DNA from: an uncultured bacterium
GTDB lineage: Bacteria; Babelota; Babeliae; Babelales; JABCYS01
Direction of reading: 5' to 3'
DNA length: 64,000 nucleotides
Assembly (NCBI GenBank): GCA_963705705.1
Contig: CAVPKK010000007.1
Location: 268,221 to 332,220 of the forward strand
Each line of letters begins with the position of its first letter. The first letter of the stretch is position 1. A model generated the notes under the pieces. That model searched no databases and had not been told where the DNA came from. It saw only the letters and a program-made list of their open reading frames with translations. Below, one piece after another: positions 38,912-64,000 of the stretch. Position numbers and translations under genes: made by a program.

Positions 38912-40105
38912 TTAAAGTTGCTGAATTTTATCAAGAAAAAATGACACTTCATCTGCAGTATTATACATGCCAAAACTAGCCCGAACCGCGGCATCCAAGC
39001 CTAACTGCTTGGCCAATGGCTGAGCACAGTTATGCCCTGCACGAACGCAAATATTGAATTGGTCCAGATAGGCAGCAACATCATGAGCATGCATGCCATC
39101 TACAATGAAACTTACTAAGCTTCCGCGCTTTTTTAATTCTTCGATGGGCCCCAGCAATTTAATTTTTGGCAACTTCTGCAGGCCCTCAATAGTTTGCTTA
39201 CACAACGTAGATTCATACTTCTCAATCGCGGGGCGATCCAATTGCATGAGGAAATCAATCGTAGCTCCCAGGCCAATAGCTTCAGTAATCGCTGGGGTAC
39301 CAGCCTCAAACTTTCGTGGTGCTGGTTGCCAGGTAGCATGATGGTAGTCAGTGGTAAAGACCATGCCGCCGCCATATTGATATGGTGCAACAGCATCATG
39401 AAGTTCTTCTTTAATAAACAATATGCCAATGCCGCTGGGCCCATACATTTTGTGGCCTGAAAAAGCTAAGAAGTCACAATTCAAATCCCTCACATCGATA
39501 GCTTGGTGAACCACAGACTGTGCGGCATCAACCAAAATTTTTGCACCGGCAGCATGAGCCATGTGTGCAATTTTTTTCACATCTATCTGTGTACCCAAAA
39601 CATTAGAAGTATGAGCAATCGCAACTAGCTTTACGCCTTTACCAATGCATTCTTCTGCATGTGCCATATCGAGCATGCCGTCCGTTAACAAGCGAATAAC
39701 CCTGAGTTCAGCCCCAATTTCATTACAAACCACTTGCCATGGCAAAAGATTACTGTGATGTTCCAAGGCCGAAATCACAACCACATCGCCTTTTTTTATA
39801 TGCTTTGTCGCCCAGGCTTGCGCAATAAAATTAATAGATTCGGTAGTGCCACGAGTAAATACAATTTCCTTGCTTTGGGCATTTAAAAATCTTGCCACTT
39901 TTGCACGCGCTTCATCAAACTTTTCCGTTGCATGTTCGGCCAGTTTATAAATTCCGCGATGCACATTGGCGTAGCCATGCAAATAAAATTGCTGCATAGC
40001 ATCAAGGACTTGTTGAGGTTTTTGTGCCGATGCAGCGGTATCGAAATAAATCAAGTCTGGATTGTGCTCAAACAATGGGAAGTGAGATCGGATATTAGTT
40101 TTCAT
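38912..40105 (-). CDS. sufS: Cysteine desulfurase SufS
   Basis: YFDTAASAQKP, ANVHRG, EHHSNLLPWQ, FSGHKMYGP, RAGHNCAQP. Confidence 0.96.
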   Translation of the reverse strand: MKTNIRSHFPLFEHNPDLIYFDTAASAQKPQQVLDAMQQFYLHGYANVHRGIYKLAEHATEKFDEARAKVARFLNAQSKEIVFTRGTTESINFIAQAWATKHIKKGDVVVISALEHHSNLLPWQVVCNEIGAELRVIRLLTDGMLDMAHAEECIGKGVKLVAIAHTSNVLGTQIDVKKIAHMAHAAGAKILVDAAQSVVHQAIDVRDLNCDFLAFSGHKMYGPSGIGILFIKEELHDAVAPYQYGGGMVFTTDYHHATWQPAPRKFEAGTPAITEAIGLGATIDFLMQLDRPAIEKYESTLCKQTIEGLQKLPKIKLLGPIEELKKRGSLVSFIVDGMHAHDVAAYLDQFNICVRAGHNCAQPLAKQLGLDAAVRASFGMYNTADEVSFFLDKIQQL

Positions 40106-61965: not shown

Positions 61966-64000
61966 TTATTTTACTAATCTCTTTTCTACTTCTCTGCGTA
62001 TTGCTCTTCCCAGTTCACTTTGTGCAATTTCTTCATCTACCACCTGCCGGCGGCGTTTTGGGAGAAAAGCACCTACTTCCTTCAGATAACTGTTAAATGA
62101 GCTTATAGCATCATCAAATTTTCCATCTTCAAGATAATCCATGCCCGATGCAAAAAGTGGCTCATTGTTCAGTAATGTGTCTGCGCCTTTTCGTTCATGA
62201 GCAAGCTCTGCGGCATGAGCAGAAGATTCTTTTGAGAACTGTTCAAGTGCAAGCGTAGCTTTTTCAGGATTGGTTACCAAAAGCTGGCGAGCTTCTTGAT
62301 ATTTCTCACGAAGCTTTCCAACTACATCCTCTTGGGGAATCGGTGAGATCCAGCCAGGGGAAGGCGGCGTTATTCGTCGTCCGACTTGAAAGCTAGCCAA
62401 TCGTTTTTCTACTTCAGCCAAGCTAGCCTCGGCTTGTTTTTTAATTTGAGGAAAATCAATGGCTTGCGGAATCATATCTGCAAATAGTTCACGTGCCTTG
62501 GCCAAGTCGTTCATCTTGAATGCGGCTTTGCCCGAAAGCAATAGCGATTTGAGATATTCTTGGTCAGCCGGATAGCCACGCAGCTGCCAACGATAAAGTT
62601 CTAACAATGGTTCGGCCTTTGCTGCATCCGCTACACTGGCAGTCTTTTTCAAAAGATCCTCAGCATCTGAAAGTAATTTATCCGTTGGCCAAACGTCGAT
62701 ATCGATTAAATCTACATTACGAGTTCTTTGGGCTTGCTCATCTTCAGTTTCATAAATTTCACCTCGAGCATCAATCATGACCACAGCAATAGCATCTTTT
62801 TCGCGAAGCATTTTATACACGATGCGGTAGTTGCCAATGCGAATGCGCCAAAGCCCTTCGAGGCCTTTACCTTTAAGTTCCACCGCTGAACTATTTTTAT
62901 AGCCAAAACTCAGTTCTTCAAGCGCTTCTCTCGCTCGCGATTTTATCTCTTTTGGCAATGGCTCAAGCTGGTTATATGGATCAAATATGAAAAGCAATTG
63001 TTGCGATTCTTGCTCTGCTGATGGCGATACCACTTTCTTTTCTGGAACTACGGCCGATTCTTTTTCAACAGCTCGCAATTGCTGATTGGCCTTATTCACA
63101 AATTCTCTTCGTTCTGGGATTTTGAGATCTGCCAATGCCTTGATAACATCTCTTACATTATCAGCTCGTGCGCTTGATGGCTTTTCTTTGTACTTTGCCA
63201 GCGCTCCTTCAAATTCAATCTGAAGGGTATCGGCCTTTTGTTGCTTATATTGATTTTGTAAAGTTGCAATTTGTTTGCGAATATCCGCATCGGTAATAGT
63301 TAATTGCTGAATATCGTGCAACTTTTGTTTTGCAACATCCAGCTCTTTATTTTCCAATGCCTCATCGAGCCCTTTTATCAAGTTACGTGCTTGGCGAGTT
63401 TGCTGCTCTTGGTGTGCCTTTTTTTCTTCTTCTGTTAGCTCAGCGGCAGCCGCTGAAGGTTTACTCCATTTCGCTACTTTTGCTTTTAGAAGTTGTATTT
63501 CCGTCGCAAGCTCAGGCATGTGCAATGTTTCAAGCTCTGCTATCGCTTTCTTTGCAGCTTTTATCAATGGTGGTGTCGGAGCTTTTCCTAGGAGTTCAAA
63601 TATCTTAACTGTTTGTATTCCAATAAACACATCTCTGAACTGATCAATCTTTTCCCTAAGAAATGACACTTTTTTCTCAAGTGCAGCTTCATCGTACACG
63701 TTTTTGAGTTCGATCGAGGCTTGTTCAAGCAGTTTCTCGGCATCAAGAAAATCCTGAGCTTTCGCAATCGGTTGTGAAAGTAATTCTTCCAAAGTGCGCA
63801 TGGTCGACATTGCTTTTGCCATTAATTCCTGTCGCTCATTTGCTTGTGCTTCGAACGAAATACCTTTTTTTCAGCAGACAACGCTACAAGATTTTGCTGA
63901 GCTTCTTTTGCTGTCTCAAGGTCATCCTTTTGATTTGCAGCTTTTTCAAAATATTCTCGCGCTTTTGCAACGTCTTTTTTCAAACCGTACATACCTTTAT
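61966..64000 (-). pseudogene. Sel1 + RelE-domain gene (copy 7), 5' end off window, 1-nt deletion in A7 tract
   Basis: 63872-64000 encodes the last Sel1 repeat homologous to copy 6, in a different frame from ORF 61966-63822; adding one A at 63865-63871 restores the frame. Confidence 0.75.

Follow-up and report, generated by a model that had tools for sequence, protein, structure and literature searches.

RelE-family toxins are known as small cytoplasmic proteins restrained by antitoxins, and the Dependentiae as intracellular parasites of protists; why, then, would a genome most likely of this phylum encode a row of large, leader-bearing repeat proteins that each enclose a RelE-like segment in mid-chain, and what might that segment do there? 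The locus that raises this question lies at the end of a stretch of 64,000 nucleotides (the window, in whose numbering all positions are given unless stated otherwise), which represents the last 64 kb of contig C7 (CAVPKK010000007.1) in assembly GCA_963705705.1 (1.38 Mb in nine contigs, GC content of 0.43, completeness of 96%). From position 40102 to the contig end, the minus strand carries seven paralogous genes, g1 to g7, six of which are complete and encode proteins of 1002-1259 amino acids (aa). A preliminary description, made from the DNA letters, had reported these seven paralogs, the six complete ones with a leader and ankyrin or Sel1 repeats and all of them with a long coiled coil, a RelE-type segment of ~85 aa and a tetratricopeptide repeat (TPR)-like tail, and our analysis confirms the array, with some corrections given below. 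Below, we show that profile searches and structure prediction converge on a RelE fold for the segment, that its active-site positions are among the best conserved of an otherwise divergent family and that the domain evolves under strong purifying selection, and we then weigh what such a domain could accomplish within proteins of this build.

Identity and conservation of the embedded segment

The RelE-type domains are encoded on the minus strand at positions 40846-41130 (g1), 44648-44941 (g2), 48006-48299 (g3), 53236-53514 (g4), 56278-56556 (g5), 59146-59430 (g6) and 62716-63009 (g7). When the whole proteins are compared with the Pfam model PF05016 (ParE_toxin, curated cut-off of 23 bits), all seven match with scores of 21.9-27.1 bits, five above the cut-off and two, g1 (21.9 bits) and g6 (22.3 bits), just below it, and in a six-frame search of the genome all seven pass at 27.8-32.8 bits. 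The same model matches ten of 12 relatives, introduced below, at or above the cut-off (23.2-34.8 bits), with P0074 scoring 20.9 bits and no match listed for P0122. Furthermore, a phmmer comparison with the sequences of the PDB places RelE proteins first, namely T. thermophilus RelE (E-value of 4.6e-4), archaeal aRelE, M. tuberculosis RelE2 and E. coli RelE.

The g3 segment, which also served as a search query, was modeled with AlphaFold2 from 114 relatives and yielded a strand-helix-helix-strand-strand-strand(-helix) topology with a predicted local distance difference test (pLDDT) score of 81 and a predicted template-modeling (pTM) score of 0.74. A Foldseek comparison of this model with the PDB returned 21 entries at E≤1e-3. 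RelE structures fill its first nine rows (2khe, 3g5o, 9g12, 3bpq, 1wmi and 4fxh; template-modeling scores of 0.59-0.74 when normalized on the query and of 0.64-0.82 when normalized on the target), and YafQ, HigB2 and YoeB come next. The profile search and the structure prediction that had been proposed as checks of the RelE assignment thus agree, and jointly they identify the segment as a genuine RelE-fold domain. Because the best Pfam model bears the name ParE_toxin, the domain could in principle act like ParE, by poisoning DNA gyrase or topoisomerase, and not as a ribonuclease (RNase). We regard this as very improbable, since the nearest solved structures are RelE proteins and the first ParE-named Foldseek entry stands at rank 38, since the catalytic Arg and Tyr positions of RelE are invariant in the family, and since PF05016, as passages of a recent toxin survey describe it, also includes E. 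coli RelE and a subcluster of messenger RNA (mRNA)-cleaving enzymes (PMC11980606).

Alignment to E. coli RelE with HMMER places arginines of the family on K52, R61 and R81 and a tyrosine on Y87. Four of the equivalences originally drawn by eye, in which an R,R,R,R,Y series was set against K52/K54/R61/R81/Y87, are thereby retained; the remaining one is ambiguous, as K54 falls within an insertion and the second arginine of the family aligns to R56 instead. In an alignment of 20 long members of the family, whose mean identity is 24%, the sole invariant columns are D281, W325, R328, R333, Y336, R353 and Y357 (g7 numbering); all of them lie inside the RelE-type domain, where R326 is in addition conserved at 90% or more. 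An alignment of the g3 segment with 113 stand-alone relatives likewise keeps these four arginines and the last tyrosine at 90% conservation or more, and the motif RxRVGxYRIxY...R..VY is common to the embedded and the stand-alone forms. Asp281 and Trp325, on the other hand, lack such conservation outside the embedded family (across the stand-alone relatives of the joint alignment, the Asp column is mostly Ser at 0.23, and Trp stands at 0.42), and their invariance within it hints at a changed function.

Among the window copies, the RelE-type domain and the tail are 52-100% identical, and it is the heads, built from either ankyrin or Sel1 repeats, that vary. Estimates by the Nei-Gojobori method for all 21 pairwise comparisons among the seven window genes give the domain synonymous divergences (dS) of 0.24-1.2 and ratios of nonsynonymous to synonymous divergence (dN/dS) of 0.014-0.28, to be compared with dN/dS values of 0.18-0.36 for the helical region (three pairs saturated) and 0.14-0.22 for the tail (one pair saturated); in the domain, the pairs closest at the protein level have ratios of 0.014 (g2-g3), 0.022 (g4-g5) and 0.036 (g1-g6). 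The RelE-type domain is therefore the most constrained of the three regions and is under strong purifying selection, and the low ratios indicate that its high identity between copies reflects constraint and not only recent gene conversion.

Distribution and origin of the embedded form

When 1.84 billion representative sequences were searched exhaustively, 279 proteins were recovered at E≤1e-3, and the best 150 of them were classified. These 150 include eleven additional clusters of long proteins (375-1069 aa) in which the domain is embedded and two short fragments of the same kind, and the remainder are nearly all stand-alone proteins of ~42-135 aa. The longer rows of that remainder are P0116 (221 aa), P0118 (246 aa) and P0032, the last of which was rejected as an unrelated protein whose match is limited to residues 10-41. 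The long relatives share the build of the window proteins, with a leader, ankyrin or Sel1/TPR repeats, a helical region, the RelE-type domain and, in some, the tail. A member of 626 aa already bears the label 'mRNA interferase RelE/StbE' in one database, which indicates that automatic annotation has caught the domain before. The nearest non-self locus among 185,579 species genomes (L010) comes from a metagenome-assembled genome of a Candidatus Dependentiae bacterium. Its product, which is 594 aa long and carries the NCBI name 'tetratricopeptide repeat protein', combines Sel1 repeats and the RelE-type domain with a leader. This locus and a NurA gene of the window, described below, point to the Dependentiae as the most likely affiliation of the present genome, whose owner would then probably be a parasite within protists.

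Of 261 genomes searched within the phylum, 75 contain a match to the domain query, and the matches lie nearly all in open frames of ~50-145 aa. Open frames longer than 400 aa with the domain occur in seven of the 261, namely the present genome with its seven copies and G001, G061, G055, G219, G256 and G249, the matches in the last three being weak (E-values of 2e-6 to 5.5e-4); locus-level examination covered G001 and L010, the latter taken as G061. The search for this domain architecture in other genomes, which the preliminary description had called for, has thus recovered relatives that combine a leader, ankyrin or Sel1 repeats and RelE. Stand-alone RelE genes of the canonical kind were also observed in the phylum: at two loci, L099 (1243-1755 in that locus) and L101 (1477-2034), such a gene is preceded by one for an antitoxin of 69 or 84 aa, and canonical modules therefore coexist with the embedded form.

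The genome G001, which belongs to the same genus, has a single ankyrin-type member of 721 aa directly upstream of sufB, the position that g4 holds in the window, which suggests that the array arose by local expansion from a single ancestral gene. An array of seven copies is peculiar to the present genome. Two ankyrin-type relatives, P0010 (1069 aa) and P0011 (1056 aa), are both recorded on Logan contigs of 7670 bases and are probably tandem neighbors, which would represent a second tandem duplication outside this genome. In a tree of 136 rows and 90 columns, a single clade unites the 21 embedded domains and separates them from the 115 stand-alone ones, with a support of 97.6 in the Shimodaira-Hasegawa-like approximate likelihood-ratio test (SH-aLRT), consistent with one fusion event; the embedded form is of single origin and restricted to this phylum. 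Of 8000 candidates scored in a protein search with the RelE-plus-tail part, the seven window proteins and P0003 were the only ones returned. In metagenome contigs, at least 261 of 600 matched stretches encode relatives, and examination of the two best loci, which proved to hold stand-alone genes for 94 and 98 aa, brought no new embedded member.

Protein build, absent partners and proposed action

In the complete proteins, the leader is followed by an ankyrin or Sel1 head, an all-helical region of ~260 residues, a proline-rich linker, the RelE-type domain and a helical, TPR-like tail of 250-330 residues that contains a second proline-rich linker. The heads are assigned to ankyrin repeats in g1-g5 (Pfam Ank_2, E-values of 1e-27 to 6e-70) and to Sel1 repeats in g6 (5.5e-61). 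An AlphaFold2 model of the 618-aa product of g7 combines a mean pLDDT of 85.8 with a pTM of 0.39, which indicates that the modules are well defined and their mutual arrangement is not; its low-confidence stretches are residues 123-129 and the two linkers, 259-274 and 483-496. Upstream of the domain, where a long coiled coil had been described, the model shows helical bundles with helices of 12-35 residues, and the coiled-coil assignment is therefore abandoned. Foldseek with the 618-aa model gave no match at E≤1e-3, its rows being RelE over the domain and generic TPR or helical-repeat proteins over the rest, and a Protein Atlas search with the tail produced only TPR-like leads, all below 0.9.

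A basic-then-hydrophobic N-terminus is present in all six complete genes and in nine full-length relatives. The hydropathy of these N-termini (maximum over ten residues) of 1.96-3.42 lies above the 95th percentile of internal windows (1.9). The conserved leader of the complete proteins consists of two basic residues, a hydrophobic core and then LxATS. By these sequence features, in which small residues follow a basic n-region and a hydrophobic core, the leader of the six complete genes is a putative signal peptide, as had been proposed. The N-terminus could alternatively serve as an anchor, in which case the proteins would be self-directed, membrane-bound RelE-type toxins of defense or stress, with the repeats acting as sensors or built-in inhibitors. 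Multidomain and transmembrane toxins of the BECR fold have indeed been described as candidate defense systems in parts of the toxin survey cited above (PMC11980606), and the phylum does possess stand-alone RelE genes, with an upstream small antitoxin gene at the two loci examined. We nevertheless consider such an anchored toxin improbable, as the leaders resemble cleavable Sec signals with small residues after the core (LxATS, then A), no antitoxin domain was detected with the one antitoxin type compared and the seven copies swap their heads around a constant domain; moreover, Dependentiae proteins with eukaryote-like repeats typically carry signal peptides and, in the passages devoted to them, are read as secreted (PMC4378268).

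The array contains neither an antitoxin nor an immunity gene, the spacing between paralogs of at most 15 bp leaving no room for small genes, and the six-frame search detects no stand-alone PF05016 gene in the genome. A fused antitoxin is equally absent from the comparison made, in which a 69-aa Dependentiae RelE antitoxin, the single antitoxin type compared, reached an hhalign probability of 0.24% against the family. The earlier claim that the domain lacks an antitoxin partner is thus upheld, and for want of an antitoxin the array is not a toxin-antitoxin module. Set beside free RelE proteins (E. coli RelE, T. thermophilus RelE 2khe, M. tuberculosis RelE1 and RelE2, and aRelE 1wmi), the array domain is alike in fold and in its Arg/Tyr motif; it differs in being internal to leader-bearing proteins of 1000-1260 aa, whereas RelE is free and ~90 aa long, in its roughly neutral charge, in the absence of an antitoxin gene or domain and in its extra invariant Asp and Trp.

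Nor can the array be called polymorphic, as the preliminary description had it, since the toxin-like domain is constant, the N-terminal head is the variable part and immunity genes are lacking. Secreted use of the RelE family is noted marginally in the polymorphic-toxin survey of Zhang et al. (2012), whose passages on Tox-RelE list the type II secretion system (T2SS) as an export route, Imm54 as the immunity partner and a single classical RelE case, from Paenibacillus elgii (PMC3482391). Tox-RelE proteins, as presented there, and the array proteins both place a RelE-type domain in a protein with a secretion signal, a putative one in the array; in the former, however, the domain is the variable C-terminal tip of RHS/HINT proteins and is followed by an immunity gene, whereas in the latter a central constant domain is combined with a variable head. 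Pfam searches at E≤0.01 found neither RHS or HINT nor releasing peptidase domains in the array proteins. With no variable C-terminal tip, immunity gene, RHS or HINT, the array is not a polymorphic toxin system in the usual sense.

The multidomain BECR toxins surveyed by Gerdes (2025) likewise hold a domain of the RelE/ParE superfamily within a larger protein, and those that passages of the survey set out are toxin-antitoxin fusions, the ptuXYZ operon and transmembrane ToxM with ToxR, multidomain proteins without an identifiable antitoxin having been excluded (PMC11980606). The main text of that survey contains none of the terms 'ankyrin', 'signal peptide', 'secreted' or 'Dependentiae', and in the searched part of its supplement Dependentiae appears five times (the passage displayed being a stand-alone YafQ row) and ankyrin and Sel1 are absent. 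In agreement with the earlier statement that the architecture was not recognized as a described system, searches of the literature on Dependentiae together with RelE, or together with ankyrin/Sel1 effectors and toxins, found no description of it. RelE domains in secreted toxins being already on record, what appears to be new is a RelE-fold domain in a putatively secreted, modular and host-facing family of the Dependentiae.

At whom might such proteins be directed? In Babela massiliensis, another member of the phylum, 79 of 126 ankyrin proteins have signal peptides and the T2SS is the sole secretion system found, according to the relevant passages of its genome report (PMC4378268); three secretin genes are present in the genome studied here; and E. 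coli RelE is described, in parts of two papers, as cutting mRNA on eukaryotic ribosomes (PMC2807027, PMC11980606). On these grounds we tentatively read the seven paralogs as host-directed effectors that would be exported through Sec and the T2SS and would carry a RelE-derived RNase or RNA-binding warhead, an interpretation to which we give somewhat less than an even chance and in which export, activity and target are all inferred. In this scheme, a Sec-type leader would be cleaved upon export, which would proceed via Sec and the type II secretion system; a changeable eukaryote-like head of ankyrin or Sel1 repeats would select the host partner; and a helical spacer would lead to the constant warhead, which keeps the active-site arginines and tyrosine of RelE, and then to the TPR-like tail. 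The most likely action would be the binding and cutting of host RNA, most plausibly of mRNA in translation.

The Babela ankyrin proteins resemble the array proteins in phylum, in the combination of leader and ankyrin repeats, in their expanded families and in the presumed T2SS route; a RelE-type domain is unmentioned in the consulted passages of that report, in which the only toxin-antitoxin pairs reported are HicAB and MNT-HEPN (PMC4378268). Toxin-class domains also recur in effectors of more distant bacteria. The Legionella effector AnkX, for example, combines a FIC domain with ankyrin repeats, and the Bartonella Bep proteins are FIC effectors. These proteins, and a Rickettsia VapC as portrayed in parts of its report (PMC12321070), offer an analogy only: they similarly join a toxin-class domain to a delivery signal against a eukaryotic host, with ankyrin repeats added in AnkX, and differ in using a FIC or PIN fold instead of RelE, in their routes through type IV secretion systems and in their lineages.

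Several observations weigh against a warhead that acts in the manner of free RelE. The 20 embedded domains have net charges of -3 to +5, with 17 of them at or below +2, in comparison with a median of +8 for the 113 stand-alone relatives (3 of 113 at or below +2), which have a median of 18 basic and 10 acidic residues in ~84. At the level of single positions, the embedded domains retain the active-site Arg and Tyr residues, and basic residues of the stand-alone relatives have given way to Asn/Gln, Pro and Glu at three sites, two of them where the helical part begins and the third immediately following the catalytic Tyr; in E. coli RelE, 21 of the 95 residues are basic and those on three helices bind 16S ribosomal RNA, as stated in passages of its structural description (PMC2807027). 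Finally, the domain lies mid-protein, with ~650-920 residues on its N-terminal and 250-330 on its C-terminal side, and in the g7 model a helix begins two residues past the catalytic Tyr and continues into the tail. With the basic surface lost and both ends tethered, unaided entry into the ribosomal A site is unlikely. Of the earlier proposal that a toxin domain has been repurposed as an effector payload, the fold, the active-site positions and the leaders are sustained and the purifying selection speaks in its favor, whereas canonical A-site cleavage is weakened. The embedded domain may be released at the linkers, may be positioned by its neighbors or may engage another RNA or a phosphate-bearing ligand; if it does act on ribosomes, it would probably do so after release at the proline-rich linkers or upon recruitment by the flanking modules, and not by RelE-like free diffusion into the A site.

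The same features would also suit a RelE fold kept as a binding or scaffold module and not as a translation-dependent nuclease, with the Arg-Tyr face binding RNA or a phosphate-bearing ligand or docking the helical modules, and with the action of the protein exerted through its ankyrin, Sel1 and TPR parts. The loss of the basic surface of stand-alone RelE, the tethering of both ends with a helix running straight into the tail, the absence of an antitoxin, for which such a module would have no need, and the Asp281/Trp325 pair, invariant in the embedded family and not conserved in the stand-alone relatives, all fit such a module. Yet the invariant residues are the very ones that form the RelE active site, the domain has a lower dN/dS than either of the other two regions, and a cluster of four arginines and a tyrosine would be unusual to conserve for packing alone, and we consider a purely binding role possible but unlikely. 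Returning to exported effectors with a catalytic warhead, a bolder and similarly doubtful version would see in the seven copies differently addressed translation blockers, whose heads would steer one RNase to different host complexes, where host mRNA on 80S ribosomes or other host RNA would be cut, the proline-rich linkers and the TPR-like tail serving to free or position the enzyme; an antitoxin would be dispensable because the domain would fold only after Sec export.

If the effector interpretation is correct, the array would represent a toxin-antitoxin nuclease domesticated as an effector payload against eukaryotic hosts, would provide a first functional handle on the unexplained sets of signal-peptide ankyrin/Sel1 proteins in the Dependentiae and would constitute a natural experiment on what the RelE fold needs away from the bacterial ribosome. 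Should the nuclease part of the interpretation fail, the family would still exemplify a toxin fold held under strong constraint for a new purpose.

Layout of the array and its surroundings

All seven genes lie on the minus strand. The first, g1 (40102-43881; 1259 aa), encodes a leader, four ankyrin blocks, the helical region, the RelE-type domain and the TPR-like tail, and g2 (43871-47239; 1122 aa) and g3 (47253-50261) encode a leader, ankyrin repeats, the helical region, the domain and the tail; the g3 open reading frame (ORF) spans 1002 aa, and its true start is probably the Met at codon 13, in line with the paralogs. In g4 (52309-55341; 1010 aa), the same order of leader, ankyrin repeats, helical region and domain ends in a longer tail with a TPR insert, a build to which that of g5 (55357-58380; 1007 aa) is identical, and in g6 (58393-61953; 1186 aa) Sel1 repeats replace the ankyrin repeats between the leader and the helical region, domain and tail. 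The last gene, g7 (61966-64000), consists of the modeled 618-aa ORF (61966-63822), which covers the helical region, the RelE-type domain and the tail, and of an upstream Sel1-type remnant in a different frame that is truncated by the contig end. The frame shift of g7 is located at an A7 homopolymer (63865-63871, minus strand) and may represent a true break or decay, phase variation or an assembly error; in the contigs of four sequencing runs, which are short and of low depth, positions 63816-64000 fall outside. The array may continue past the contig end.

With the RelE-type segment, tail and helical region as queries, tblastn searches of the assembly gave exactly seven copies and none on other contigs. 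The seven paralogs do not, however, form the uninterrupted run first described: sufB (50969-52309, minus strand, overlapping g4 by 1 nt) and a sufD-like gene of 167 aa (50343-50846, minus strand), both outside the family, intervene between g4 and g3, and the array adjoins sufS (38912-40105, minus strand), which lies immediately downstream of g1 and whose start is overlapped by 4 nt by the g1 stop. A scan of 44100-64000 for promoters and terminators found fewer matches than shuffled sequences (25 versus 37.3 and 14 versus 21.0, respectively) and hence does not inform on transcription units. Eight soil-metagenome runs contain small shares (0.06-0.20) of the stretch, and there are no RNA runs among the sequencing runs listed as containing it.

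The suf system itself appears reduced and dispersed, with sufB, the sufD-like gene and sufS kept apart by the paralogs and a SufU-like gene (29489-29857) 9 kb away; for sufC, no match at the family cut-off was obtained in the whole assembly, the top score being 75 bits against the 212.8 required. Further large Sel1-repeat proteins are encoded upstream in the window, two of 1087 and 842 aa (9250-15143) and one of 372 aa (1719-2837), and since the tblastn searches with helical region, domain and tail gave only the seven copies, these proteins are without the RelE-type module. At 1-9250, 29844-31112 and 34396-35826 lie large ORFs of 254-891 aa that matched neither Pfam nor NCBIfam families at the thresholds applied. 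In the region 31125-33781, finally, a gene with a NurA domain (32669-33781) adjoins a 511-aa ORF without a family match; NurA is named among the phylum-specific genes of the Dependentiae in a passage of the Babela report (PMC4378268).

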